Shown here in pieces: positions 37,761 to 63,573 of a stretch of DNA of 64,000 nucleotides (the stretch's first letter is position 1; each line of letters opens with the position of its first letter). Under the pieces are notes generated by a model. That model was given only the letters and a program-made list of their open reading frames with translations, was not told the origin of the DNA and made no database searches. The position numbers and the translations under genes were made by a program. Source of the DNA: Fidelibacterota bacterium (lineage in GTDB: Bacteria > Fidelibacterota > UBA2242); contig JBNGDF010000006.1 in assembly GCA_049975265.1 (NCBI GenBank), positions 65,160 through 129,159 on the forward strand. Reading direction: 5' to 3'.

Positions 37761-40700
37761 TCAAGACTTTTCCTTTGATGCGTCCGACGACTCGTCCAGA
37801 ATTTCCCGCACCACTTTCAGGATGTCCATGGGAAAATAGGGTTTCTGGATGAAACGCGCCAGCCCGGCTTTGTAGAGCTCCGACTTGCGCCCGGGATCGA
37901 CAAAACCGCTGGCTATGATCACCCGGGCATCCGGATTGATCTTGCGAATGCGGTAAAAAACCTCATCTCCGGTCAGTCGCGGGAGCCCCATATCGCTGAT
38001 AATCAGGTCAATCTCCGACGGTGCCTGGGAGTATTTTTCGATACCGGAAACACCGTCTTTCGCCACAATAACCTGATAACCCTGGGAGCCGAAAACAGTG
38101 GTCAGCATTTCAATAATGCTCTCTTCATCCTCAATCAGCAAAATTGTCTCATTGCCGCCCGTCATCCCGGGAGCCTCCGCGTCGTTTTCAGCACCGGCGA
38201 CATCCAAAATATCCTGCGTCACCGGAACCGGCAGATAGATCCGAAACGTCGCCCCGGCAGCCGGCGCACTCTCCACCTCGATAAAACCGTTATGATTCCG
38301 AATAATGCCATGCACAGTCGCCAGTCCCAGACCGGTACCCTGCCCCTGCTCCTTGGTCGTATAAAAAGGCTCGAAGATCCGCTCGGTGGTTGTCTTGTCC
38401 ATACCGACACCGGTATCACGGATACACAATTTAACATACTCTGCGGCAATGGCATCCGGATGACGCTGACGCAGCCGCTGACCCGCTTCACGATCGGCAT
38501 AAAAACTGAGCGTCCCGCCCTTTGGCATGGCATCGCGGGCATTCACACTCAGATTCATGAGAACCTGCTGAATCTGAGAGGCATCCGCCATGATCAGAGG
38601 CAGCCGGGGGTCCACATCGGTTTCAAAGATGATCGTCTTGGGAAAGGTCTCTTGCAGCAATTTTACCGTATCGGCGACAATCTCACTCAGTTTTAACGGT
38701 CTTGCCTCGGGCTCGCTCTTACGCGCCAGGGTCAGCAGGCGTTTGACAAGGTCGGCGCCCCGCTGGCTGGCTCTTTCGATGGTGGCGATGCTGTGCTGGA
38801 TTTTCTCAGGCGTACGCTGACCCATTTTCAGCAGCGTGGCGTGCCCCAAAACTATGGATAAAATATTGTTAAAATCATGGGCAATGCCGCTGGCAAGCCG
38901 TCCCAGCGCCTCCATCTTCTGGGTCTGACGCAGCTGCTCTTCACTGGCTTTGAGATTTGCCTCCATCTGCTTGCGTTCACTGATATCCCGAATGATCATA
39001 CTGATGCGGGGTTCACCTTTGCTGTTATAAAAAATTGAAGAAGAGACCTCCGCCTCGAATTTCGAACCGTCCTTGCGGATATAGGTCAATTCTCCTTTGG
39101 CGCTGCCATCACGGCTTCGTTTTTCCAACAATACCGGCAAACGCGGGTCCTGAAGGTCTACAATCCCGTCTTTACCCGCCGTACACAATTCGGCTTCGCT
39201 CATTTGAAACATTTCACAGGCTGCCCGGTTAGCCGACAGGATTCTACCATCGGGAATCGTCAACAGAACGGCGTCCAGACTATTGTCCATCAGTAAGCGG
39301 TAGCGCTCTTCGCTTTCCCTGATTTTTTCGTCCGCCTGCTTATGTTCCGTGATGTCCAGATGCACACCGGCTGCCCGGACCGGCTTGCCATTGATATCCC
39401 GCTCGACGACCCGCCCCATATTCAGAATCCACTTCCAGGCACCGCTTTTGGTGCGCATGCGCTGCTCTACCCGTAAAAAATCGGTCTGTCCGTTTTCATG
39501 AGCGGCAATGGTCTCTTTTACCCGTGGCAGATCATCGGGATGGATCGCATCAAAGAAAAAATCAATATTCGCAGCCACCTCACTTAACTCGTAGCCCAGC
39601 ATTCTCGCCCACTCTTCATTCCGGATGATTACGCCGGTGCGTAAATCCTGTTCCCAGAGTCCCACGCCGGCACTTTGCACGGCTAATTCCAGCGCTTCCC
39701 GAATACGCTTACGCTCGGTAATATCGGTAAAGAGAACAAATTGCAAATCCGCGGTCGCCGTTATACGAAATTCCACCTGCCGGATACCACCATCCTTACA
39801 GACAACCGCATATTCCAGCGGCTCAATCTCCGTCTGGGTCTGCTTCGCCTTTTCAACGGCAGCAGCCCACATCATGCGAATCTTGTCGCGGACCGATTCA
39901 TCCGGATAAGCACACCGGTACCATTCTTCAATAGTCGGTATATCATCAATGGTATAGCCGAAAATATCGGTGAATTTTTTACTGACAAAAACGACTTTAT
40001 CGTCTTTATCCGCAATGACAATCCCCACCGGCGCCGTTTCTGCCAGGAGGCGGAAACGCATCTCACTGGCTTTCAGGGCTGCTTCCGCGCGCCTGCGCTC
40101 CGCTATATCCCGCGCCATTCCCAGAATAAATTCACCCTCCGGCAGTATGACTTTGGAAATCGTCACCTCTACCGGGTAGATGGAACCGTCCTTTCTACGA
40201 TGAACAGCCTCAAATGTAATCGCCGGATCTTCCGGTTTCATCACCTTCCAGTGATTGGATATATCGTCCCGCTCCCTTGCGGACGGGTCAATATCCATGA
40301 TATTCAGCGCCTGCAACTCTGCTTTGCTGTAGCCCAGACTCCTGATAACCGTCTGGTTGGCTTCCACAATTCGTCCTTCCAGATCATGATAAAAGACCAT
40401 TTCAGCCGCCTGATCAATCAGTGTGCGGAATTTTTCCTCGCTCGCCCGCAAAGCCCTCTGGGCGGCGCGCTCGGCACTCTGATCCCGGAAAACCAGAACC
40501 ACACCCAGAATCTCGCCGTCTTCCGTCCTGATCGGCGCACCACTATCGGCGATGGGAATCTCTCTGCCATCCCGGGTTAGCAGCAATGTATGGTTCGCCA
40601 GTCCCTGGACAGAACCCTCACGGATGACTTTCTGAACCGGACTTTCCACCTCCTGACGGCTCTCTTCATTAATAATTTTAAAAATCTCCCGGACGGATTT

Positions 40701-41870
40701 TCCTCTTGCTTCCTTCTCCCGCCAGCCGGTCAGGTTCTCAGCCACCGGATTCAGGTATTTTACCACACCATTTTTGTCTGTCACAATGACGGCGTCACCG
40801 ATGCTGTAGAGGGTGGTGCGAAATTGTTCTTCCATGGCATGCCGCTCTTTTTCATCGGCATAGAGGGCGCTAAACATATCGCGTTGACGACGATGATAGA
40901 TCAAGACAATGGTGGTGCTGACCACAATCAGAAGAAATAGTATCAGCAAAAGGAAATGACGCAAATTCCGGTAAAAATCGGCATAAATTTCCCTGCGATC
41001 GACCTTGGAAACCATAAACCAGTCGGTGCCCGGAACGGTTCCCAGATGTGTCAGCACCGGCACGCCACGGTAATCTTGATCTAAAAATATTCCGGCTTTC
41101 CCCAGCACAGCTTGGACTGCCGGGCTTTTTTGATCGGTTAATGGAAGGTGCCGGTTCAGAGCCGTATGGGGCTGATGACGCAGATTGTTCAGAAAAACCA
41201 GGCTGTCGCCTGCCACCGTTCGCCGTACCAGTAGGGTCTCGGCGGTCTTACTGGGCAGCGGCCAGCTCTCAATCAGGGGATACAAAAATTCTTCGGGCAG
41301 AGTGCGCAGAATCAGAGCCGCAACCGACTGACCGGCAGGATTCCTGATATCAGCAATAAAATCAAGATGAATGCGATCATGCATTTCACAGTAGTAAAAA
41401 TCGGTGAATGTGACTGCCTGGCTCTGCGATGCGGCGATAATCCGGGCGACCGTCATCGGCGCCAAACACTGATCCTGAGAGGTAAGCGCAAGTAGTATTT
41501 CGCCTTGGGGAGTTGTCAGTACAATATCGGCATAATCGTACTGCTCCCTGAAAACAGTCAGCCTGTCTACAATCCGGCGCTGTAAATGTGGATCGTCCCG
41601 AAATATTAGCCACTCGTTCACTGCCTCGGAAAACAGATGAGACCGGCTCAAAGCCATGGCGTCGCTCCTGCGTTCCTCGAGCCAATTGGCAATTTGTCCG
41701 GTCTTAAAATTAGCGATTGCTTTCAGCTCGTTGTGTCGGGCAATTCTAACCCGATCGACGGCTTGACGAAAAGTAATCCAGCCTCCGATTACTATAAGAA
41801 TACTTAATATGACAAAGAGGATCACAAAGGGTTTTTTCGAAATGAATTGTTTATACGGAAATTTCATCAC
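37761..41870 (-). CDS. Membrane hybrid sensor histidine kinase (periplasmic Cache-like domain, about 5 PAS domains, HisKA, HATPase, receiver)
   Basis: Two TMs; PAS units ending in DITE/DISE/DIAE; IAHDFNNIL, NLSVNARDAM, DTGVGM, GTGLGL; receiver IEDE...ISD...QKP. Confidence 0.95.
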   Translation of the reverse strand: MMKFPYKQFISKKPFVILFVILSILIVIGGWITFRQAVDRVRIARHNELKAIANFKTGQIANWLEERRSDAMALSRSHLFSEAVNEWLIFRDDPHLQRRIVDRLTVFREQYDYADIVLTTPQGEILLALTSQDQCLAPMTVARIIAASQSQAVTFTDFYYCEMHDRIHLDFIADIRNPAGQSVAALILRTLPEEFLYPLIESWPLPSKTAETLLVRRTVAGDSLVFLNNLRHQPHTALNRHLPLTDQKSPAVQAVLGKAGIFLDQDYRGVPVLTHLGTVPGTDWFMVSKVDRREIYADFYRNLRHFLLLILFLLIVVSTTIVLIYHRRQRDMFSALYADEKERHAMEEQFRTTLYSIGDAVIVTDKNGVVKYLNPVAENLTGWREKEARGKSVREIFKIINEESRQEVESPVQKVIREGSVQGLANHTLLLTRDGREIPIADSGAPIRTEDGEILGVVLVFRDQSAERAAQRALRASEEKFRTLIDQAAEMVFYHDLEGRIVEANQTVIRSLGYSKAELQALNIMDIDPSARERDDISNHWKVMKPEDPAITFEAVHRRKDGSIYPVEVTISKVILPEGEFILGMARDIAERRRAEAALKASEMRFRLLAETAPVGIVIADKDDKVVFVSKKFTDIFGYTIDDIPTIEEWYRCAYPDESVRDKIRMMWAAAVEKAKQTQTEIEPLEYAVVCKDGGIRQVEFRITATADLQFVLFTDITERKRIREALELAVQSAGVGLWEQDLRTGVIIRNEEWARMLGYELSEVAANIDFFFDAIHPDDLPRVKETIAAHENGQTDFLRVEQRMRTKSGAWKWILNMGRVVERDINGKPVRAAGVHLDITEHKQADEKIRESEERYRLLMDNSLDAVLLTIPDGRILSANRAACEMFQMSEAELCTAGKDGIVDLQDPRLPVLLEKRSRDGSAKGELTYIRKDGSKFEAEVSSSIFYNSKGEPRISMIIRDISERKQMEANLKASEEQLRQTQKMEALGRLASGIAHDFNNILSIVLGHATLLKMGQRTPEKIQHSIATIERASQRGADLVKRLLTLARKSEPEARPLKLSEIVADTVKLLQETFPKTIIFETDVDPRLPLIMADASQIQQVLMNLSVNARDAMPKGGTLSFYADREAGQRLRQRHPDAIAAEYVKLCIRDTGVGMDKTTTERIFEPFYTTKEQGQGTGLGLATVHGIIRNHNGFIEVESAPAAGATFRIYLPVPVTQDILDVAGAENDAEAPGMTGGNETILLIEDEESIIEMLTTVFGSQGYQVIVAKDGVSGIEKYSQAPSEIDLIISDMGLPRLTGDEVFYRIRKINPDARVIIASGFVDPGRKSELYKAGLARFIQKPYFPMDILKVVREILDESSDASKEKS

Positions 41871-42536: not shown

Positions 42537-44915
42537 TTATTTGCGTACCGCCAGTTCCAGGACCTCGGACATCTCCTTAACAAACTCGAATTTCATCTCT
42601 TTTTGGATCTGCTTGGGAATTTCCACCAGGTCCTTGCGATTATGACCCGGCAAAATGACCCGTCGCAATCCAGCCCGGTGCGCCGCCAAAACCTTCTCTT
42701 TAATACCACCGACCGGCAGTACAGCGCCGCGCAGGGTTATCTCGCCAGTCATCGCCAGTTTATCCTTGACCTTTCTCTTTTTCAACAGAGAAAAAATCGC
42801 CGTCAGGATCGTCACACCAGCCGAAGGTCCGTCTTTCGGAACAGCGCCGGCGGGCACATGAACATGAATATCGGTTTCACTGAATATTTTCTCGTTAATG
42901 TCCAACTCTTTGGCATTGGAGCGAATGTAACTGAGTGCCGCCTCGGCGGATTCTTTCATCACATCACCCAACTGCCCGGTCAAATGCAGATTGCCTTTGC
43001 CCTTCATGCCCGTCGCCTCAATAAAAAGAATATCGCCGCCGACAGCCGTCCAGGCGAGTCCGATTGCCACACCGGGTTTCGAAGCCCGCTCGGCTATATC
43101 GACGAAGAAGCGCTGCGGTCCCAGATATGTTTCCACCGCTTTCTCATTAACTACATATTCCTTTTTACGCTTGCGACCGGCGACATCCCGGGCGATTTTC
43201 CGGCAGATATTGGCAATTTCACGCTCCAGATTGCGGACACCGGCTTCCCGGGTATATTGGGCAATAATTTTCCGAATCCCGTCATCATTAAACTCGATTC
43301 TGGTCTTGCTCAAACCGTGCTCTTTGACCTGTTTCGGAATTAAAAATTTCTTGGCAATATTCAGTTTTTCCTCTTCGATATAGCCGGAAAATTCCAGCAT
43401 CTCCATCCGGTCGCGGAGCGCCGGCAAAATCGTGTCGTTCATATTGGCGGTTGCAATGAACATGACTTTGGAAAGATCATAGTTGACCTCCAGGTAGTGG
43501 TCGCTGAAACTGCTGTTCTGTTCGGGGTCCAGAACTTCCAGCAGCGCCGAAGAGGGATCACCCCGAAAATCGTTTCCCACCTTGTCAATTTCATCCAGCA
43601 TAAAAATGGGGTTGCTGGAACCGGATTTGCGGATGCTTTGAATGATCCTCCCCGGCAGAGCGCCGATGTAGGTACGGCGATGTCCACGTATTTCGGCTTC
43701 ATCCCGTACACCGCCTAGAGAAATCCGCACAAACTTCCGTCCCATCGCCCGGGCAATGGATTTCCCCATAGAGGTTTTACCGACACCCGGGGGCCCCACA
43801 AAGCAGAGAATCGGACCCTTCACAGCGTTCTCTTGATCCACCTGTTCTTTCAGTTTGCGGACCGCCAGATATTCAATCACCCGGTCTTTGACCTTGTCCA
43901 GTCCGTAGTGATCCTCATCAAGAATCTCCTTGGCTTTCCTGACATCCACATTATCCTTGGTATAGGTGTCCCAGGGTAGTTCCACCAGCCAGTCGAGATA
44001 GGTTCGTGATACCGTATACTCCGGCGATGCGGGTGGTATTTTTTGCAGTCTGTCCAGCTCCTTTTCCGCCACTTTACGAGCCTCTTCGGTCATGGGAGCT
44101 TTGGCGATTTTTTCCTCCAGCTCCTTAATTTCCATCGTCCCTTCGTCTTCGCCCAGCTCTTTTTTAATGGTCTTCAACTGTTCCCGTAAAAAGTACTCCC
44201 GCTGGGTTTTGGAAATCTCGTCCTGCACTTCCGACTGAATCATCTCGCCCAGCTCGATCCGCTGAATCTCCTTATTGATAATGACCGTTGAACGCTCCAG
44301 GCGCTTGCGGATATCCAGCTGTTCCAGAATCTCTTGCTTCTCGGCAACCGGTACATTGAGGAGTTGAACCGCCCGGTCTACCAGGCGTCCGGGATGCTGA
44401 ATATTGGAAAGTACGGTCGTATGCTCTTCCGTTAAATAGGGAGCGACCTTGATCAGTTTATTGTACAACTGCCGCAAATTTGCCACCAGGGCATCGATTT
44501 CAATATTAGGTTCATAGGACTCCTGCACTTTCAGCACGGCACCTTTAAAATAGGGTTCCTGCTGAATGAAGGACTGAATTTTGGCACGTTCCATGCCCTG
44601 CACAATGGCGCTCTTACTGCCATCGGGCATATTAAAAATTTTCAGTACCTGCGCGATCGTGCCCCATTCGTAAAGGTCCTCTTTATCCGGCATCTCAATC
44701 GAGCCGTCTTTTTGGGCTACCACAACGATCCGGCGTTTGGTTTCAAGCAGGTCTTCGATCAATTTCAGCGAGCGTTCGCGCCCGACGTAAATCGGGATTA
44801 CCTGCTGCGGGAACAGGACCGTGTTCCGCAATGCCATAATGGGGAGTATTTCCGGAACACCACCGACATATTCCGTGTGATCGTTGGTTTCGCTGTTTTC
44901 TATCTTGTCAGTCAT
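42537..44915 (-). CDS. lon: ATP-dependent protease Lon
   Basis: LRNTVLFP N-domain, GPPGVGKTS, LDEIDK, PKDGPSAG, VGGIKEK. Confidence 0.98.
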   Translation of the reverse strand: MTDKIENSETNDHTEYVGGVPEILPIMALRNTVLFPQQVIPIYVGRERSLKLIEDLLETKRRIVVVAQKDGSIEMPDKEDLYEWGTIAQVLKIFNMPDGSKSAIVQGMERAKIQSFIQQEPYFKGAVLKVQESYEPNIEIDALVANLRQLYNKLIKVAPYLTEEHTTVLSNIQHPGRLVDRAVQLLNVPVAEKQEILEQLDIRKRLERSTVIINKEIQRIELGEMIQSEVQDEISKTQREYFLREQLKTIKKELGEDEGTMEIKELEEKIAKAPMTEEARKVAEKELDRLQKIPPASPEYTVSRTYLDWLVELPWDTYTKDNVDVRKAKEILDEDHYGLDKVKDRVIEYLAVRKLKEQVDQENAVKGPILCFVGPPGVGKTSMGKSIARAMGRKFVRISLGGVRDEAEIRGHRRTYIGALPGRIIQSIRKSGSSNPIFMLDEIDKVGNDFRGDPSSALLEVLDPEQNSSFSDHYLEVNYDLSKVMFIATANMNDTILPALRDRMEMLEFSGYIEEEKLNIAKKFLIPKQVKEHGLSKTRIEFNDDGIRKIIAQYTREAGVRNLEREIANICRKIARDVAGRKRKKEYVVNEKAVETYLGPQRFFVDIAERASKPGVAIGLAWTAVGGDILFIEATGMKGKGNLHLTGQLGDVMKESAEAALSYIRSNAKELDINEKIFSETDIHVHVPAGAVPKDGPSAGVTILTAIFSLLKKRKVKDKLAMTGEITLRGAVLPVGGIKEKVLAAHRAGLRRVILPGHNRKDLVEIPKQIQKEMKFEFVKEMSEVLELAVRK

Positions 44916-44985: not shown

Positions 44986-45939
44986 TTATCCGGCGGCTCT
45001 GTCCATCTCTTTGAGAGTCCTGAGAAAGCGCAGGGTTACGTAAAAATCGCCCTCTTTGGATTTTCCGGCGACAGCCGGGAAAAGTCCATCCGCCAGCTGC
45101 TGCCCGATCATCCAGTTGAGCGCCTTTTTAAAATTCGGGTGCTGGTGCAGCTCGGCAAAGGGTGCCAGGGCTTCGATAAAGCGCAGCGTCCCACCCCGAA
45201 ACAGTCCATTATCGCTGTAATCGGTATACAGATGATTCCAGGCGTCGTCTTCCCGAAACAGCGTTGTATGACTTTTGGCTAAATAATTATCAAGGACAAA
45301 TGCCGCCGCTTTCTGACACACCTCGGAGCTGCGCAGGCGACTGTGTACACTGAAAGCCTGAAAGGCAAAAATCGTCGTCCAGATACCGCTTTTTGTGGTT
45401 TTTAAAGAGGAGCCGGTGGGCACCATGGAGGGTGACAACCAGCCACCATCGAACCGCTGGCGCTTCGCCAGCCAGCGGTAGCCCTTCTCCACAAAGGGGT
45501 TACCGATCATATCGTAGCGCGCCAGCAGCCAGAGCGCATAACCGTGATGGTGCAGTAGCAGCGGAAACTTGCCGTCGGGTTTTTGAGTCTTCAGCAACGC
45601 AATAATGCCACGCTGAATCGCCGGCATCTCCTTTGTGCAGCCGAAATCGTAGAGCTGCGTCATGTTTTTTAACTGCTGTAAAAACAGCATAGCCCGGTTC
45701 CGCTCCTCAATTTTGTAGCGCTTTGTCATTTTCCAGAGACCGTCTTCCAATTGACTGTCCAGCAACTGCTCCAACGGTTTATAACCGGTCAGCGCCTTTT
45801 TCAGGGTTTCCAGCAATTCCACATCGTGTGAATAAAACTGCTGCGCCGTGGCATACCGCACGGGCAGCGGTGCCTTTTTTAATAAGAGTGGAATTGGGTT
45901 AATTTTCAGTAAACGCAGCCAACTTTTTGATTTTGACAT
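44986..45939 (-). CDS. Prenyltransferase/squalene-cyclase-repeat (QW motif) alpha/alpha-barrel protein, function unknown
   Basis: QLEDGLW, QKPDGKF, QRFDGGW, QLADGLF repeats. Confidence 0.65.
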   Translation of the reverse strand: MSKSKSWLRLLKINPIPLLLKKAPLPVRYATAQQFYSHDVELLETLKKALTGYKPLEQLLDSQLEDGLWKMTKRYKIEERNRAMLFLQQLKNMTQLYDFGCTKEMPAIQRGIIALLKTQKPDGKFPLLLHHHGYALWLLARYDMIGNPFVEKGYRWLAKRQRFDGGWLSPSMVPTGSSLKTTKSGIWTTIFAFQAFSVHSRLRSSEVCQKAAAFVLDNYLAKSHTTLFREDDAWNHLYTDYSDNGLFRGGTLRFIEALAPFAELHQHPNFKKALNWMIGQQLADGLFPAVAGKSKEGDFYVTLRFLRTLKEMDRAAG

Positions 45940-46165: not shown

Positions 46166-46843
46166 TTATTTATTCTTTCTGAGCCGGAAATTGTCCTCAA
46201 CCAGCCTTTCTATTTCGGAGTAATTCTGTACGATGTAGTCGGCTGCGGTTAACTCTGCGGGGCGGGCAGAGCCGGCGAAACCGACAGCGATAGTCCCGGC
46301 TGCTTTTGCCGCCTGAAGCCCGGTCGCCGAATCTTCGATTACGAGTGTAGAGCCCGGATCGGTTGCCAACATCCGACAGATTTTCAGATAGGGATCGGGA
46401 AAGGGTTTTGAGCGAACCACATCGTCAGCGGTTACGATACGGGTAAAGTGATTTTCGATAATGGTATGTTCAAAAATCCAGTTCAGCATCGCCCGACCGC
46501 TGGAGGTTGCCAGTCCGGTGGACACCTTTTCTGCAATACGATGAAAAAAATCCAAAAAACCGGGCATGTAGTCCAGCGCCTCTGCAAACGCCCGCCGTAG
46601 CAGCTTCCGCCCCCTTTTCCGTAATTCTGTCTGCGGAATGGTAATATGATAGCGCTCGCTGATCAATTTCAGGTAGCTGTCCTCCGGCAGCCCCTTGGTA
46701 TCTCTGATGTCCTCCAGGTCCACATCGATACCATAATACGAAAACAGCTCCAGTTCCGCCTTTTCATAGAGCGGCTCACTATTGACCACTACCCCATCAA
46801 AATCAAAAACAACGGCGTTTATCACGGTCATCTTTTTAACCAA
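46166..46843 (-). CDS. HAD-superfamily phosphatase (beta-PGM/CbbY-like)
   Basis: FDFDGVV, TSS, KPFPD, IEDS. Confidence 0.9.
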   Translation of the reverse strand: MVKKMTVINAVVFDFDGVVVNSEPLYEKAELELFSYYGIDVDLEDIRDTKGLPEDSYLKLISERYHITIPQTELRKRGRKLLRRAFAEALDYMPGFLDFFHRIAEKVSTGLATSSGRAMLNWIFEHTIIENHFTRIVTADDVVRSKPFPDPYLKICRMLATDPGSTLVIEDSATGLQAAKAAGTIAVGFAGSARPAELTAADYIVQNYSEIERLVEDNFRLRKNK

Positions 46844-48266
46844 TAAATCCCAGTATCAGATAGAGAATCAGTGCCAGTCCGGCGGAGGAAAGCGCATAGG
46901 GCAGCTGGGTATTTACATGATCGATATGATCACAGGCGCACGCCATGGAGGCGATCAGCGTCGTATCCGAAATCGGTGAGCAGTGATCACCGAACACCCC
47001 TCCGCCCATTACCGCGCTGACCATCAGCGGCAGACTCAAATCAAGACTCAGCACCAACGGTACGGCAATGGGAATCATGATCGCAAAGGTACCCCAGGAA
47101 GTCCCTGTCGCAAACGAGATAAAGCAGGCAATCAGAAACACCAGCGGTATAATCAACGCCGGATGAATGGTGGCAGACGCAAGATTGGCGACATACGGAC
47201 CGGTACCTATGGTCTTGCAGGTGGCGCCCAGTGTAAAGGCAAATACCATCAGCAACCCCATGGGAATCAGCCCGCCCATTCCTTTCATCACCAGATCAAG
47301 AATCTCCTTCAGAGAAAAAATACCCTGCCCTTTATAGAGAATTGCAGCGACGGCAATGCCCATCAGGACCGCCCAGAACACCGCCGTAGAACCGGACCCC
47401 TGAGTGATATTTCCGCCGCCGGTCACGATCAATCCAAAGGGTACTGTCAGCACCATCGCCAGCAGCGGCACCAGCATATTCAGCGGGCGCGGTGTGACCC
47501 CATCTTTTACCGGCATGGCGATTGTCTCCTCCGAAACCAGCAGCTGTGCACCGTCCCGGATCACCTTGCCGGTCTCCCGCGCCCGTTTTTCAGCTTTTGC
47601 CATAGGTCCAAAGTCCCGGTTTGTCACAATGATAAACAGTACCAGCAGAATTGTGAAGATCGCATAAAAATTCGTCGGAACCGCCTTTAATACCGTAAAA
47701 AAGGGATTGTCAATCTGCTGAACCAGCAACAGCCCGGTTAATACGGCACCCCAGCCGTTGAATGGAATCATCACGCAGACCGGCGCCGAAGTGGAATGCG
47801 CCAGGTAGGCTAGTTTTTCCCGGGGAACCTTGAATTTATCAAACAGCGGTCGTCCGATGGAGCCGATGACCAGATTGATCATATTGCTTTCAATAAATAT
47901 CAGAATACCGATCAGCCAGAGCATAATGCCGGCACTGCGGCGGTTATTGACCAGCCCCTTATGGCTGACCCACTGAATAAAACCCTTAACACCGCCGGAA
48001 TGCTGCATCAAAATGATCAGCGCTCCCACCATCATGCTGAAAACAATTACCTTTGTATTACCGGAATCCTTAAAAGTATTCACCGTCGCCTCCAGCGCAT
48101 CCCGCAGTCCCAGCAGCGGATTCCAGCGGTTGATGGCTGTCCAGCCCAGCCAGATACCCAGAAAAATCGACGGATAAACCTGTTTGGTCCGAATGGCTAA
48201 TACAATTGCCAGAAGTGGCGGCAGCACCGAAATCCATCCATAACTCTCCATCATAACTGTTCCCAT
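46836..48266 (-). CDS. NhaC-family Na+/H+ antiporter or sodium:amino-acid transporter
   Basis: SVLPPLLAIVLA, FATGTSWGTFAIMIP, GGVFGDHCSPISDTT, HVNTQLPYA. Confidence 0.9.
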   Translation of the reverse strand: MGTVMMESYGWISVLPPLLAIVLAIRTKQVYPSIFLGIWLGWTAINRWNPLLGLRDALEATVNTFKDSGNTKVIVFSMMVGALIILMQHSGGVKGFIQWVSHKGLVNNRRSAGIMLWLIGILIFIESNMINLVIGSIGRPLFDKFKVPREKLAYLAHSTSAPVCVMIPFNGWGAVLTGLLLVQQIDNPFFTVLKAVPTNFYAIFTILLVLFIIVTNRDFGPMAKAEKRARETGKVIRDGAQLLVSEETIAMPVKDGVTPRPLNMLVPLLAMVLTVPFGLIVTGGGNITQGSGSTAVFWAVLMGIAVAAILYKGQGIFSLKEILDLVMKGMGGLIPMGLLMVFAFTLGATCKTIGTGPYVANLASATIHPALIIPLVFLIACFISFATGTSWGTFAIMIPIAVPLVLSLDLSLPLMVSAVMGGGVFGDHCSPISDTTLIASMACACDHIDHVNTQLPYALSSAGLALILYLILGFIG

Positions 48267-48303
48267 CTTTGCTTTTTCAATGGTTCGGAAAACCGAAGCC
48301 GAT

Positions 48304-49959
48304 TTACTTAAATACCGGTATAGTCAATTCGAAAATTGTCTTTTCAGCCGCTATGGTCTTCGCCCTGAATTTAACCCCGTAGCGTTCCAGCAGCATATAG
48401 GCATTGTGCAGCTGCACGGTTTTTACATTGTCCGTCTCTTTCCATGGTGTTTTACCCCTCTGTTGCAGGGAAAAGAACGGGGTAATAATGGTCTGTAAAT
48501 CTTCTGTAGTCAGCCGTCGACCCGAATAAGTCAGGATCAGGGATATACTATTTTGATCGGATGTATCAGCGATCCGGAGTGTCGGTTGTGGCACATCCGC
48601 CATGGCATCAATACAAAATTCGATGATGCCGGCAAGGGCGAGGGAAAAATCGCTGTAATACCCCCGGATTGCCGGAATCGTCCGATCCAGATCAAAACGA
48701 ATATCCACCCGGTCTCTGACGTATTGATTGGATTTGATGAACAGAACCTCGGTCCTGATCAGATCATTCAGATCGATATCCATGATTTTGTCAGTTCGCA
48801 CCAGCTTGGCTTTTTTCAGGAAAATGTCCGCCATCTGGAGAATCTTGCCGGCATTGGAAATGATGATTTCCGGTTCCCTGAGGTCCGGCATTTTCTGCTG
48901 CAGCAGCTGGGCTCTCCCGATAATCACCGCCAATTCATTGCGCATATTATGGATAATTCCATCGGCAAATAGTCCCATACTGGAGACTTTCTGGCGTTTC
49001 ATCAGGTCTACCTCCAGTTTATGCTGGTATTTTTCCGCCTCTTTCCGCTCGCTGATATCGCTGATGATGGCAAACGTCGCCGGGGCACCTTGATAATCGA
49101 TGATACTTACATTGGCTTCCACATGCAGATAATCACCATTTTTTCGTTTAAAAACCGTCTCGTAGCGTGACGGGACGTTCGCGCCCTGTTTCCGTCGCCT
49201 GGCGCGTTCCTTCAGGATAGCCAACCCTTCATCGGTATACACCTGGCGATAATCCGCCATGCGGAGTTCATCGTGGCTGTAGCCCAGCATTTCGGTAAAT
49301 TGGCGGTTGAAAAAGATAAATTTATCGTTCTGGCTGATGACAATGCCGTCGTTGAGGTTCTCCACCAGCAACCGGTACCGCTCCTGTGATTCATGCAATT
49401 TCAACTCCATGGACTGATGTACAAGTACCCGGGCGGCGATCTCAGCCGCTTTCGTTACCAGCGCGATTGTTTCATCATTCCAGATGCGTTTCTGACCCAC
49501 AGAATCAAAACCGATCAAGCCTATCCGACTGTTGCTGTATTGCAGCGGAAGCGCCAGCAGCGACCGGACTCCCGGCGCTGTCAGTTTCGCTATTTCACAC
49601 ATCACCTCGTTCGGCATTTTGTGAACATCCCCAATCCGAATTGCCCCGCCGGATGATAACTGCTTACCTATCCAGGGAAATTTTTTCAGGCTGAGCCGTT
49701 GAAGTTGTTCGATCTGTGGCGCTACACCTTGGGCGCACCATTCATGTGAACAGCCGAGTGTATGGCTGCGCCGGTCCAGTTTTAAAATCCAAGCCCGGTC
49801 GGCGGATGCAAATTCAGCAATCCTTTTCAGCATCCGGTTGACCGTTTCGTCCACCTGAACCGGAGACAGATGGATAAAATCCAGCGCAATCTCCAGGATG
49901 AGTTGTTGCCACAATTCTGTCTGGTTTTTTTCCTGCATATTCGCACCAACCGGTACCAT
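48304..49959 (-). CDS. GAF-PAS-HisKA protein with degenerate ATP-binding domain
   Basis: GAF (HEWCAQG...IGLIGFDSV), PAS (...SDISERK), H-box IIHNMRN; N, G1 and G2 boxes not recognisable. Confidence 0.8.
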   Translation of the reverse strand: MVPVGANMQEKNQTELWQQLILEIALDFIHLSPVQVDETVNRMLKRIAEFASADRAWILKLDRRSHTLGCSHEWCAQGVAPQIEQLQRLSLKKFPWIGKQLSSGGAIRIGDVHKMPNEVMCEIAKLTAPGVRSLLALPLQYSNSRIGLIGFDSVGQKRIWNDETIALVTKAAEIAARVLVHQSMELKLHESQERYRLLVENLNDGIVISQNDKFIFFNRQFTEMLGYSHDELRMADYRQVYTDEGLAILKERARRRKQGANVPSRYETVFKRKNGDYLHVEANVSIIDYQGAPATFAIISDISERKEAEKYQHKLEVDLMKRQKVSSMGLFADGIIHNMRNELAVIIGRAQLLQQKMPDLREPEIIISNAGKILQMADIFLKKAKLVRTDKIMDIDLNDLIRTEVLFIKSNQYVRDRVDIRFDLDRTIPAIRGYYSDFSLALAGIIEFCIDAMADVPQPTLRIADTSDQNSISLILTYSGRRLTTEDLQTIITPFFSLQQRGKTPWKETDNVKTVQLHNAYMLLERYGVKFRAKTIAAEKTIFELTIPVFK

Positions 49960-49973
49960 TGTTCATCCGTTGG

Positions 49974-50582
49974 CTAATTCAGGTTCAATCCCGCCGTCAG
50001 AAAAAATCTGCGAAGCTTCGATATCGTGGTAAACCGATGGGAGCGGATACCCAGCCGGCGGGCAGCCCGGACATTATCCATCAGATCATCCACGAACAGA
50101 CACTCTGAGACATCATGTCCGGCAATCTCCAGTGCCTTGTGGTAAATCGCCGCTTCCGGTTTTCGGGATCGGACCTCGTAGGACAGTACCAGTGCATCAA
50201 ACTCATCCAGGATATCCGTAATCCTCCGGACCGCCCGGATATGGAGTTCGTTCGTGTTGGACAGAAGAATCAGACGAACCTGTCGTTTTAACACCGGAAT
50301 CAGTTCACAGACATCGGGAATCTCTTCAAAGGGTTTCTGCCAGATGTCGATCAGCGCCGCCATGGTGATTGGCTGGCTCAGACCACACTCGCGGTTTAGC
50401 CGGTCAATATATTCATCGGTGTCGATCAATCCCTTTTCAAATGCCTGTTCCACCGGTGACTCCGCCAGCCTCCGGACTACCGGCAGCGAGAGACCCGGCA
50501 GACGGGCGAATTCGCTCAGAATGCGCTGCTTGTCTACCCGGAGAAGCACATTGCCGAGATCAAAAAAGACAGTTCGAATCAT
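49974..50582 (-). CDS. HAD-superfamily phosphatase (YihX-like)
   Basis: FFDLGNVL, LSNTNELH, SYEV..RKP, FVDD. Confidence 0.9.
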   Translation of the reverse strand: MIRTVFFDLGNVLLRVDKQRILSEFARLPGLSLPVVRRLAESPVEQAFEKGLIDTDEYIDRLNRECGLSQPITMAALIDIWQKPFEEIPDVCELIPVLKRQVRLILLSNTNELHIRAVRRITDILDEFDALVLSYEVRSRKPEAAIYHKALEIAGHDVSECLFVDDLMDNVRAARRLGIRSHRFTTISKLRRFFLTAGLNLN

Positions 50583-50591
50583 ATAGACAGA

Positions 50592-51578
50592 CTATTTTTC
50601 ATCAACGATAATTTCCGTTTCAATCCGCCCGGTCGGTTTTTCCGAAAAGCTGCGGACGATGGGCGATTCATATTTTTCCAGTTTTTCCAGAGCCTCCTCA
50701 TCCAGAAGTTTCAGATGGGTCATAATCGCCATGGACATGGAGTCGGCGGCTTTCCAGTCCCCGCTGAGAACCTTCAGGGCAATGCCGGTATGACCACCCT
50801 CCGTCCGGATTCCGATGCCCCGGACGCCTTCAAAACCGTATCGTGAAACACCCTTGCCGTGCAGGGCGGTGATGAAATCGGTATCAAAACGACCCTTTCC
50901 TGCCAGATGTTTGGGATGAAGATTCATTACATGAAAAATCTTCTGCAGCTCTTCATCGGCGCCGGCAGCCAGCTTCCGGTACATCATTGCCAGAGAAAAG
51001 AGTCCTAAAAAGTAGGTCGGCGCATTGCTGTCATCCATCTCCACCGGGATTTTATCTTTTTCCGCATAGTGTTTCATTTTTTCAAAAATGCGTTGCTGCA
51101 CCGGGTGCTCGACTCCGGTATAGCCGTCAGTGGTAACATCCATCGCCTTGGCGATAGCAAGCATGCCGGCATGAATGCCGCTGTTGCTATTGTGCAGCGC
51201 CGTCGCCCGGCGACCCTGTAAAATCAGCTGTTCATAGCTGTTTTTATCGTGAGGCGGATGAACCCCACAGAGCAGTTCATCCACACTTACGCCGATCTTT
51301 TTCAACAAATTCGACACCGCCTCGGTCTGATATGCCTCACCGTTATGGCAACTGCAGCAGATGGCAATATCCTCATCGTTCAGATGAAACTTTTCAACGG
51401 CTCCGGAATCCAGCAAAGCTGTCGCCTGAAAAGGGCTTCCGGCTGTCTGAACAAACACCGGATACTCCAATTCCCCGGCAGAAAAGATGACATCGTTTTG
51501 ATCGTTCACAGCGACCGCATAGCCGACGTGAAAGTTGTCAATAATATCTCCCCGGTACTTTTTGGTAACTAAAATCAT
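50592..51578 (-). CDS. Class 3 (Rhizobium etli-type) L-asparaginase homologue with catalytic residues substituted
   Basis: Scaffold RGDIIDNFH, PFQA, LLCGVHPP, HAGML, HPVQQ, AGKGRFDT, GIALKV; see findings for the active site. Confidence 0.8.
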   Translation of the reverse strand: MILVTKKYRGDIIDNFHVGYAVAVNDQNDVIFSAGELEYPVFVQTAGSPFQATALLDSGAVEKFHLNDEDIAICCSCHNGEAYQTEAVSNLLKKIGVSVDELLCGVHPPHDKNSYEQLILQGRRATALHNSNSGIHAGMLAIAKAMDVTTDGYTGVEHPVQQRIFEKMKHYAEKDKIPVEMDDSNAPTYFLGLFSLAMMYRKLAAGADEELQKIFHVMNLHPKHLAGKGRFDTDFITALHGKGVSRYGFEGVRGIGIRTEGGHTGIALKVLSGDWKAADSMSMAIMTHLKLLDEEALEKLEKYESPIVRSFSEKPTGRIETEIIVDEK

Positions 51579-51592
51579 GTCAGTATTCTCCT

Positions 51593-52291
51593 TTAACTAA
51601 TCTCAATAATGCTCATAAATTCTCTGACAGCCGTGTCGAATCCCAGCAAAAAAGCCTGAGCCAGCAGGGCGCGACCCACAGACATGAACTCCACCTCAAT
51701 CACCTCGTTCAGCGCCCGGATGGTTCGCTGATTGAGCGCACCGCCTGCCGATACCCGCAGATTGTTGCGTGTCCCGATCCGGATGGTGTGTGTGATTTTT
51801 CCGAGACATTCCAGAAAGGCTGTCCGGCTGTCCAGCGCCCCTAACTCATTGGTGGCAATCTCCACCTCATCAATGCCCATCTGGTAAGCCTCCTTCATAC
51901 ATTTCACATCGGGCTTCAGCCGCAAAGCAATTCCCACATTCTCGGTACGGACGACCGCAGCGACCAGCTCTTTAACCAATTTCGATGGAATTTCAAGGCT
52001 GCCGTCCTCTGCGTCAGGATCATAGATCGTGATCAAATCCGGTCGCAACAGCATCACTTTTTGAACCATCTGCATATCTGCCGGAACCCGTATATTGATG
52101 CGGCTGCTGGTCATGGACCTCAGCAAACCCAGATTATTCATCTGTCCGATTTCCGTTCCATACCCGAAGCTGATGCCGTTCACTCCTGCGGTTTCAGCCA
52201 GTCCGATCAGGTTGAGAGGATTGGAGATCGGTGCCCCGGTGATCTTTGCCAGGGCAATGAGGGGATCAAAATTGATCTCAAAATAAGCCAT
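51593..52291 (-). CDS. PdxJ (PNP synthase)-fold protein with catalytic residues substituted
   Basis: Collinear with PdxJ: INFD, AETAGVNGI, RIN, RP, VEI.T, LRVSAG..L, VG.AL..A...G...AVRE; similar length. Confidence 0.75.
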   Translation of the reverse strand: MAYFEINFDPLIALAKITGAPISNPLNLIGLAETAGVNGISFGYGTEIGQMNNLGLLRSMTSSRINIRVPADMQMVQKVMLLRPDLITIYDPDAEDGSLEIPSKLVKELVAAVVRTENVGIALRLKPDVKCMKEAYQMGIDEVEIATNELGALDSRTAFLECLGKITHTIRIGTRNNLRVSAGGALNQRTIRALNEVIEVEFMSVGRALLAQAFLLGFDTAVREFMSIIEIS

Positions 52292-52305
52292 CTCGATTTA
52301 TCCTT

Positions 52306-53463
52306 TCACGAAACAATTTCCGAGGCAAAACAGAGCGTAATCCCCGCAAATTTGCCCGTCTCAATTAACTCCTTCAGCACCTCCAGCGTCTCCGGATAGA
52401 CATGCCCGATGGCTATCGCAGAACCGCGCCTTTTTGCCACCTCTATGGCTTTTTCAATCTGAACCTGAATAGCACTTTTATCTCTCTGATTGTCAAGAAA
52501 TACCGAGCGACAGGCGGCCGGCAATCCCTGACTGCGCGCTGCTTCATAAGCAACACTGCGGGGCGAGGTGAAGCTGTCCACGAAAAACAGCCCCTTCTCG
52601 CGCAGACTTTTCATCACCATATTCATCAGTTCATTATCCGCCGTCGCCAGTGAACCCATATGATTGTTCATCCCCGTTGCTTCCGGCAACTCCATCAGAG
52701 CCGCCGCAATTCTCTCCTCCACCTCCAGGCGACGCATTGCCTGCCGAATCATATACTGATCCTCACCGGTCTTGTATTCGGTGCGTTCCGGCTCCATCGG
52801 CATATGAATCAAAATCTCTTTGTTGTGCCTGCTGCCTTCTGCGGCGGTCCAGCGGGAATAGGGATGTCCGGGAATCACCGAAAAAGTTAATTTTTCATTG
52901 AGGCGGATGAATCCCCTGATCACGTCGTTGTTGCTGTACCCGAAATCGTCAATAATGATTGCCAGTTTCGGTTTTTGGCGCAACTCACCTTTTAAAATAT
53001 AGTAATCCCGGGGCTGCACGTCGCTTAAAAAGGTGATGGCACCCAGCGACTGGTTGTAATAATCCACCATTGCAATAAAGCCGCGCCCGTTCGCAAATCG
53101 GTTGATATGGCGAACCGAGCAGCCGTCGCGCTGCACCAGCGGTCCGATCATTTTGACCGCGGCGTCCACCGTCATATCACCGGGAATCGTAAATGCCAGA
53201 ATCAGACTGCTGCTTTCATCGCTTTCGATCTGGATTTCGGAAAAGCCTTGCGCTGCCAGTTCCGCCTTAATCCTGTTATTGAGAATAGTGCGACCTTCGA
53301 GGTGGATGATACTCCGGGAGGGTGCCGAGCGGGGATAAAAATATAACAGAATTAAAGTCAGCAATCCCAGAATGCCAATAAAAACAGCCGTCAGACGTTT
53401 CTCATCTTTCCGACGATTGGCAACCACTCTGTCTGGTTTTTTAAGATATCGGTTGATTTTCAT
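52306..53463 (-). CDS. Membrane-anchored divergent polysaccharide deacetylase (YibQ-like)
   Basis: N-terminal TM; AIIIDDFG, HMPMEP, NNHMGS, FVDS, VFLDN, AIAIGH. Confidence 0.92.
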   Translation of the reverse strand: MKINRYLKKPDRVVANRRKDEKRLTAVFIGILGLLTLILLYFYPRSAPSRSIIHLEGRTILNNRIKAELAAQGFSEIQIESDESSSLILAFTIPGDMTVDAAVKMIGPLVQRDGCSVRHINRFANGRGFIAMVDYYNQSLGAITFLSDVQPRDYYILKGELRQKPKLAIIIDDFGYSNNDVIRGFIRLNEKLTFSVIPGHPYSRWTAAEGSRHNKEILIHMPMEPERTEYKTGEDQYMIRQAMRRLEVEERIAAALMELPEATGMNNHMGSLATADNELMNMVMKSLREKGLFFVDSFTSPRSVAYEAARSQGLPAACRSVFLDNQRDKSAIQVQIEKAIEVAKRRGSAIAIGHVYPETLEVLKELIETGKFAGITLCFASEIVS

Positions 53464-62466: not shown

Positions 62467-63573
62467 TCAGGCACTGGCAAAAATCCCTTCTGTAACGGGT
62501 TCTATAAAGACTTCCGGGATCGTTAAGGGTTCAGTTTCAATCATTACACTTGACGACTCTAATACCGTCTCAGACGCTTTGAAATCACGCTCCATTAATG
62601 ATAAATCAAAGTTAGCATAAATTTCAGTTGTCTTGACGCTGGAATGGCCAAGCAAAGTTTTTACTCGGTAAATATCTCTTGTTAAATAATAGGTACGAAC
62701 GGCGAAAGTATGTCGCAGGGTGTGAAAGTGACGGCCTTCACCGGAAGGGGTTTTGTCAAGTTTCAAGTCCCGTAAAATTTCTAAAAACATCTTGCTGATC
62801 GTGCCGGGAATATACTGACCGTTTTTCTTTAACCATCTGTAAAGGATCGCCGTTTCCCGATCCGCCGGTATATCCCGCTCAATGCCATGCTTGCAGGGGT
62901 CGAAGGTTCGGATAAAATGTTTATCAAGATAACTGTTTGTAAATTCATTCAGTCGCAAGCCGGTTTTCCAGTGGATAAATATCCTTGCGTAAAGTTCCGG
63001 GTTCGGCTTTGCCCTTTCCAGAATACGATCCATTTCCGCATCGGTAAAATAGACCGGTCGCTTGCGCTGGACAGGCAGCTGCTTAATTTTCCAGGGGTTC
63101 GCCTTGATCCGCTCTGTTTCAGCGAGCCAGTTCATAAACGCCCGGATTGACCGCAGACGAATGTTCAGGGTCTGAACGTTGGGATAAAGGGATTTCATTT
63201 TATCCAGAAATTCCGGGTAATCCCGCCGATTCAGATAATTGATATTTTTCCGGGTCATGTACTCCGCAAAACTATCTAAAGCCAGGTTGTAAAGATTGAT
63301 CGTTTTCGGGTTACGGTTATTGCGCTGAAGGTACTGAATAAAGTCATCAATCAACGGTTGCAATTCCGGCAGGTCGCTGATTTCAATCTCATCAATGCCA
63401 ATCGTGCCACTCTTAAAAAGCCGCTCTTTTTCGCTAATTTGCGGTAGTAATTTTTCCGCCTTCGCCCGCTGTTTGGTGTTCAACGGGATCAGTTTTTCCT
63501 TGCGCTGTCCATTGGGTGCAAAATATGAAATCCTTGCGTAAAACTTGCTTTTAAGTTTCCGTAACGCCGCCAT
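62467..63573 (-). CDS. Tyrosine recombinase / phage-type integrase
   Basis: TGLRLNE (R), FHTLRHTFA (HxxR), LGHSSVKTTEIYA (H, Y); SAM-like core and N-terminal arm-binding-like segment. Confidence 0.95.
   Translation of the reverse strand: MAALRKLKSKFYARISYFAPNGQRKEKLIPLNTKQRAKAEKLLPQISEKERLFKSGTIGIDEIEISDLPELQPLIDDFIQYLQRNNRNPKTINLYNLALDSFAEYMTRKNINYLNRRDYPEFLDKMKSLYPNVQTLNIRLRSIRAFMNWLAETERIKANPWKIKQLPVQRKRPVYFTDAEMDRILERAKPNPELYARIFIHWKTGLRLNEFTNSYLDKHFIRTFDPCKHGIERDIPADRETAILYRWLKKNGQYIPGTISKMFLEILRDLKLDKTPSGEGRHFHTLRHTFAVRTYYLTRDIYRVKTLLGHSSVKTTEIYANFDLSLMERDFKASETVLESSSVMIETEPLTIPEVFIEPVTEGIFASA

Follow-up and report, generated by a model that had tools for sequence, protein, structure and literature searches.

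Catalytically dead PdxJ-fold and class 3 asparaginase-fold proteins under purifying selection in a conserved gene run of an uncultured Marinisomatota bacterium

The gene run and its conservation

We report that a run of seven minus-strand genes in a 64,000-nucleotide stretch of DNA (the window; assembly GCA_049975265.1, contig JBNGDF010000006.1, positions 65,160 to 129,159) includes three degenerate enzyme genes, coding for a PdxJ-fold protein, a class 3 asparaginase-fold protein and a histidine kinase-like protein. The host is an uncultured member of the phylum Marinisomatota (Neomarinimicrobiota/Fidelibacterota) and its genome is 95% complete. An earlier note on this DNA had put forward the seven genes as one metabolite-sensing system; our comparison points instead to a run assembled stepwise, in which displaced PdxJ-fold and asparaginase-fold enzymes have been kept for separate, likely protein-binding, non-catalytic roles, an explanation that we regard as probable, if by no means assured.

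The open reading frame (ORF) coordinates agree with the spacing given in the earlier note, with intergenic gaps of 14, 14, 9, 14, 37 and -8 bp, and a Pfam profile scan returned, along the run, matches to PF04748 (YibQ-type deacetylase), PF03740 (PdxJ), PF06089 (class 3 asparaginase), HAD, GAF and PAS, PF03553 (NhaC-family transporter) and again HAD. By gene order the conserved run goes on past the second HAD gene, taking in genes for a squalene-cyclase-like repeat protein and for Lon. Compared genomes are here numbered G### and their loci L###, and "in-order" refers to genomes of the window organism's order.

YibQ lies immediately upstream of PdxJ in all 39 PdxJ-bearing loci, and asparaginase follows PdxJ in 38 of them; in G066 PdxJ has no adjoining asparaginase. 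YibQ is also immediately upstream of asparaginase in 16 of 20 PdxJ-less genomes, and YibQ-asparaginase is therefore the most widespread pair. The first HAD gene (HAD1) is directly downstream of asparaginase in 32/32 in-order genomes and was not seen at that place in loci outside the order. PdxJ has been cleanly deleted in four in-order genomes (G028, G030, G031 and G032), all of which keep asparaginase. Members of the run have thus been gained and lost independently, and gene-order comparison gave no support for their co-inheritance. A scan for promoters and terminators gave numbers near chance (20 versus 14.0 and 16 versus 13.3).

The PdxJ-like protein

The PdxJ-like gene (51593..52291, minus strand; PF03740, 75 bits) is predicted to encode a complete barrel (predicted local distance difference test, pLDDT, 91), and a Foldseek search of the PDB matched the model to the PdxJ TIM barrel at template modelling (TM) scores of 0.89-0.91 (about 0.90; 1ho1 and 3gk0). 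Aligned to E. coli PdxJ it keeps three of 12 active-site residues, N9, E153 and G215, and the other nine are replaced (H12>P, R20>T, H45>G, R47>G, H52>Q, E72>R, T103>L, H193>G and H216>R; E. coli numbering). Among the nine are all of H12, R20, H45, R47, H52, E72 and H193, active-site positions that do not vary in intact homologues. The protein passes the Pfam cut-off and scores far under every NCBIfam equivalog cut-off. PF03740 is single-copy in the window genome, and a search with this profile found no second or active PdxJ paralogue in the 95% present.

Throughout the phylum the picture is the same: PF03740 matches occur in 64 of 301 genomes with a top score of 142.5 bits, against 331 for an intact domain, no stop codon was seen among the 64 matches, and none of the 59 aligned copies keeps any of H12, R20, H45, E72 and H193. 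PdxS, in turn, is present in 293 of the 301 genomes, including every family with a dead PdxJ. The window genome has adjacent and apparently intact pdxS and pdxT; PdxA, PdxH and PdxK were not found in the 95% of it that is present, and PdxA was found in 0/25 genomes of the organism's family. Synthesis of vitamin B6 is therefore independent of the PdxJ-like gene. At L092 (G000:C9:18346-21963) pdxS-pdxT lies between two further genes, which from their motifs we take to be ispH-like and dxs-like.

Degenerate PdxJ outside the phylum

To follow PdxJ beyond Marinisomatota we used the best 150 profile matches, 149 of which were aligned and 139 of which were near full length. Within this sample, which is biased towards dead copies because such copies made up the profile, 76 of the 139 representatives keep at most five of the 12 active-site residues, and all positions were scored present in 31. 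Desulfobacterales copies, which keep 7-9/12, we did not class as dead. The positions conserved among the 76 are mostly structural Gly, Pro and Ala. Some dead clusters carry the name Calditrichota, one degenerate cluster (P0294) has a member named Gastranaerophilaceae, and an ESM Atlas search returned PdxJ clusters only. Dead copies of several phyla group together on a quick tree; this grouping may reflect long-branch attraction, and we do not claim a single origin. The sample also contained YbeY-PdxJ fusions (P0144, P0156 and P0160; confirmed by Pfam for P0144 and P0160), and P0160 keeps 8/12 PdxJ residues.

We retrieved 31 metagenome loci with a Calditrichota-like alignment, which are unlabelled as to taxon and often short. 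A lipoprotein gene of unknown function directly precedes pdxJ in 27/27 of those that have upstream sequence, and neither YibQ nor asparaginase was present near the dead pdxJ in any of the 31, within these often short stretches. The same lipoprotein pair stands upstream of YibQ in 7/13 out-of-order Marinisomatota loci. The dead gene's position is therefore likely to be older than its linkage to YibQ and asparaginase. Tandem lipoproteins without a Pfam match (L154:3775-4947; L123:2528-3731) precede dead pdxJ or YibQ, and the pair was not found in the window genome.

The class 3 asparaginase-like protein

The asparaginase-like gene (50592..51578, minus strand; PF06089, E 4e-80) encodes a protein whose model matches the ReAV fold at TM 0.91-0.93 (Foldseek on the PDB). 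Using the numbering of the R. etli IE4803 homologue, whose residues agree with the published ones, none of the eight catalytic and zinc residues is kept (R47>Q, S48>T, K51>S, S80>C, C135>N, K138>I, C189>S and K263>R). The Ser48-Lys51 and Ser80-Lys263 tandems together with Arg47 read T, S, C, R and Q, and the Cys135/Lys138/Cys189 zinc site is replaced by N, I and S. Substitution of R47, S48, K51, S80 or K263 destroys ReAV activity (PMC12292245, partial text), and C135 or C189 mutants of ReAV lose zinc (PMC11024299, partial text). PF06089 is single-copy in the window genome, in which no active paralogue was found; a short class 1 asparaginase is present elsewhere in this genome, and from its type we presume it to be active on asparagine.

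All eight residues are present in 46/46 out-of-order copies checked (26 + 20) and in only six of 36 in-order copies, which range from 8/8 to 0/8 among close relatives. On a tree built with the catalytic columns removed, intact and damaged tips are intermixed, which requires six or more separate losses, with differing substitutions. The catalytic columns changed 8.25 times per site, more than sites in general (6.4) or the remaining outgroup-invariant sites (3.1), and the basic residues of the pocket, R47, K51 and K138, rank with the fastest (11, 9 and 13 changes). D111, E116, G122 and R124, by comparison, show no change over the 36 in-order tips, and D111, E116 and R124 vary outside the order. 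In the predicted model these four lie on or just past helix 112-120, within an order-specific motif (residues 111-126; 51201..51248), and this helix would correspond to the H7 "basket handle" of ReAV. In ReAV, H7 forms a handle above a 20 Å tunnel, and the authors raise the possibility that other biomolecules bind there (PMC8602277, partial text). The asparaginases of the four PdxJ-less in-order genomes keep the handle motif, so PdxJ is unlikely to be its partner.

The pseudokinase

Pfam finds GAF and PAS domains in the kinase-like protein (48304..49959, minus strand) and no match to HisKA or HATPase_c at E 0.01. The earlier note held that its catalytic residues were lost, which is true of the ATP-binding N, G1 and G2 boxes, all replaced in an alignment to an intact kinase of the window and scored by box motifs that we take as standard. 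It does not extend to the phospho-acceptor of the H-box, since the window protein keeps His337 (codon 48949-48951), as do 13 of its 14 distinct full-length orthologues.

The slot after HAD1 holds a full-length pseudokinase in 14 of 20 loci of the family, a broken one in three and none in three, and the pseudokinase is absent from the slot in 10/10 other in-order loci; in the closest genome it is split by a frameshift into two ORFs (L062:9648-11282). Helicase or PAS/GAF proteins occupy the same slot in other loci. Its nearest relatives in sister families, 522-residue kinases of seven genomes of two such families, have all boxes intact and are unlinked to the run. No regulator cognate to the pseudokinase was found in the run. 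By its retained His and dead ATP site the protein would fit a phosphotransferase or phosphatase like PhyK/PhyP, for which an intact hybrid multi-PAS histidine kinase downstream of lon (37761-41870) is a candidate donor of phosphate to His337.

Two further observations concern this group of proteins. A second kinase with degenerate ATP boxes is present in G008 (L194:2703-3824), unlinked to the run and adjoining a receiver-domain protein. PAS/GAF proteins that fill the slot or share the PAS domain (L100:2244-5519, L104:3389-5788, L113:3354-5315 and G000:C7:93933-95714) have a short conserved Cys-rich C-terminal tail and no kinase domain (67% identical).

Selection

The ratio of nonsynonymous to synonymous substitution rates (dN/dS) was calculated with NG86 for nine of 20 pairs, those with dS below about 1.2. 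PdxJ gave 0.06-0.14, asparaginase 0.05-0.11 and the kinase, in four of the pairs, 0.11-0.13, compared with 0.06-0.21 for YibQ and 0.13-0.19 for HAD1; the three degenerate genes thus behave like their intact neighbours and are not decaying. Together with retention over many genera, this bears out the earlier note in preferring selection to decay. With fold kept, catalytic residues lost and purifying selection acting, the pseudoenzymes are real and under selection.

Intact neighbours

As the earlier note had it, the deacetylase and both HAD proteins carry their motif residues. YibQ (52306..53463, minus strand; PF04748, E 1.5e-69) is a membrane-anchored divergent polysaccharide deacetylase with D172, D173, H220, H268, D296, D324 and H354 present. 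Its N-terminal tail (residues 1-24; 53392..53463), predicted to be cytoplasmic, has a mean conservation of 0.69 in 25 in-order PdxJ-bearing genomes, close to that of the catalytic domain (0.70) and above that of the N-domain (0.48). The tail motif is absent in 4/4 in-order PdxJ-less genomes (two lineages); G033 and G035 have part of it, and most genomes outside the order lack it, so a tie between tail conservation and the presence of PdxJ is suggestive only. A predicted complex of the PdxJ-like protein with YibQ residues 1-46 scored 0.03, the mark being 0.32, which counts neither for nor against an interaction. That PdxJ was first retained on account of the tail we rejected, given the Calditrichota-like loci without a nearby YibQ. 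In G035 (L118:3107-4258) and G033 (L119:7545-8702) YibQ has lost five catalytic residues and the gene is kept, so in this one genus all three core genes are retained pseudoenzymes.

HAD1 (49974..50582) is YihX-like and the second HAD phosphatase (46166..46843) is HxpB/beta-phosphoglucomutase-like, both on the minus strand, assigned by Pfam and NCBIfam and with motifs checked. The NhaC-family transporter gene (46836..48266, minus strand; PF03553, E 6e-54) is absent from the run in G025, G028, G030, G031, G033 and G035. The G013 copy (L105) is 86% identical to that of the window, its neighbouring genes being 43-61% identical, and the copies of several other genomes are about 54% identical, so that the gene seems to have been replaced in place. 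The extension of the run, also on the minus strand, comprises the squalene-cyclase-like repeat protein (44986..45939; PF13243, E 2e-7) and Lon protease (42537..44915), placed by Pfam and gene order. At the window end a tyrosine integrase (62467-63573) coincides with a drop in G+C to 0.44, possibly the edge of an island.

Interpretation and alternatives

The three losses differ in age: that of PdxJ came first, asparaginase is losing its catalysis again and again within one order, and the pseudokinase joined late, as a passenger, in a single family. Since the three dead genes joined the run at different times, separate jobs are likelier than one sensing system. PdxJ would have died early, in or before the ancestor common to Calditrichota-like bacteria, after PdxS and PdxT had come to supply pyridoxal 5'-phosphate (PLP), and would have stayed behind the two-lipoprotein pair, with YibQ and asparaginase joining later. 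Asparaginase would have remained enzymatic until the base of the order, where catalysis became dispensable and was lost repeatedly by lineage, and the handle helix of the dimer was fixed, probably as a putative protein docking site. In one family, a sensor kinase would then have entered the variable slot and lost its ATP site, and may now serve a regulator encoded outside the run, as a histidine phosphotransferase or phosphatase under GAF-PAS control.

Several points weigh against this account. No binding partner has been identified. Six of the nine dN/dS pairs, all taken from a single genus, are not independent of one another, and values near 0.1 can result from fold maintenance alone. The match of helix 112-120 to H7 depends on helix counting, and the invariant polar residues of the PdxJ barrel (below) could form a real pocket. 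Class 1 asparaginase (PF00710), moreover, tracks the class 3 losses poorly: it is present in 34/41 genomes, in some of them next to an undamaged class 3 enzyme, and the search did not find it in G005, G027 and G028, all with a damaged one.

A more specific version, which we consider possible and rather doubtful, is an envelope-linked scaffold in which the cytoplasmic tail of YibQ would tether the PdxJ barrel and the asparaginase dimer would dock a partner, either the HAD phosphatase or Lon, beneath its handle helix.

It is unlikely that each dead enzyme works on its own as a ligand sensor or buffer, PdxJ for a B6 vitamer or sugar phosphate and the asparaginase fold for asparagine. Most PdxJ copies do keep the equivalents of N9, E153, G194 and G215, often with Arg or Lys at 216, and the asparaginase fold retains H81, S136, G137, H139 and D187; however, G215 has become Asp in five of 30 in-order PdxJ copies, which should block phosphate, two barrel arginines were gained in this order and other residues elsewhere, and the basic residues of the asparaginase pocket are at some of the fastest-changing sites. 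Somewhat less probable still is a new catalytic activity of the PdxJ-fold protein in this order, based on N7, D9, R68, R124 and E144. These are invariant in 23/23 in-order sequences, E72>R and F133>R hold in 30/30 in-order copies and the model is a complete barrel, but other orders and the Calditrichota-like copies do not retain this set, Arg-Glu pairs may merely plug the barrel, and what the dead representatives at large conserve is mostly structural.

The proposal of one system, with dead enzymes signalling through the pseudokinase to the transporter, has tight spacing, a full run intact in many family genomes and selection on three degenerate genes in its favour. Gene order largely refutes it, and we hold it to be very improbable: the pseudokinase is confined to part of one family, frameshifted in the closest genome, replaced in its slot elsewhere and derived from intact, unlinked kinases; a second degenerate kinase is unlinked in G008; PdxJ and asparaginase each occur without the other adjoining; and the three losses are of very different depth. 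Just as improbable is slow decay, in which functionless genes persist because misfolding or disruption of a coupled operon is costly, for although PdxJ was not found in 237/301 phylum genomes, has been deleted in some in-order lineages, and the asparaginase substitutions are heterogeneous, no PF03740 match has a stop, identities to the nearest genome (80% for PdxJ and 84% for asparaginase) exceed those of YibQ (78%) and HAD1 (76%), new invariant surface residues have appeared and dead PdxJ persists across phyla.

Relation to known systems and significance

Pseudoenzymes as such are a known kind; no pseudo-PdxJ or class 3 pseudo-asparaginase was found in the open-access papers searched. The window protein shares TIM-barrel fold and length with PdxJ (PF03740, TIGR00559) and differs in nine of 12 active-site residues, in a genome that uses intact PdxS-PdxT and in which PdxA and PdxH were not found. 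Plant PDX1.2 is likewise a dead TIM barrel of the B6 pathway with a non-catalytic role, and regulates active paralogues by co-assembly. Such regulation, suggested in the earlier note for the window proteins, fails here because no active paralogue of either PdxJ or asparaginase was found. With ReAV/ReAIV of Rhizobium etli the asparaginase-like protein has the fold in common, and out-of-order orthologues keep all eight residues, whereas the window copy has none and carries the order-specific handle motif. ChpT keeps its phospho-His with an ATP domain that is dispensable or degenerate, and the window kinase appears to resemble ChpT and PhyK/PhyP in this; unlike these it has GAF-PAS input and derives from a lineage-specific subfamily of intact kinases. 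PhyK acts as a phosphotransferase and the catalytic and ATP-binding (CA) domain of PhyP is degenerate (PMC5964349, partial text).

Databases label the dead PdxJ copies "pyridoxine 5'-phosphate synthase", and pdxJ serves as a signature gene of the 1-deoxy-D-xylulose 5-phosphate (DXP)-dependent B6 pathway in a PLP survey that counts Caldithrix among ten genomes with both B6 routes (PMC9997740, partial text). B6 pathway calls for these phyla are therefore likely to be wrong. The available part of PMC9500103 does not mention the host phylum.

That several phyla have kept a dead PdxJ for so long points to a second role of a textbook enzyme, and the asparaginase series, from 8/8 to 0/8 among close relatives, is a test case for the passage from moonlighting enzyme to pseudoenzyme. 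The series is also relevant to the suggestion that other biomolecules may bind in the ReAV tunnel (PMC8602277, partial text). Were the scaffold real, the order would be a natural series in which this passage took place six times or more, and dead PdxJ would bring to light an ancient second function of its family.

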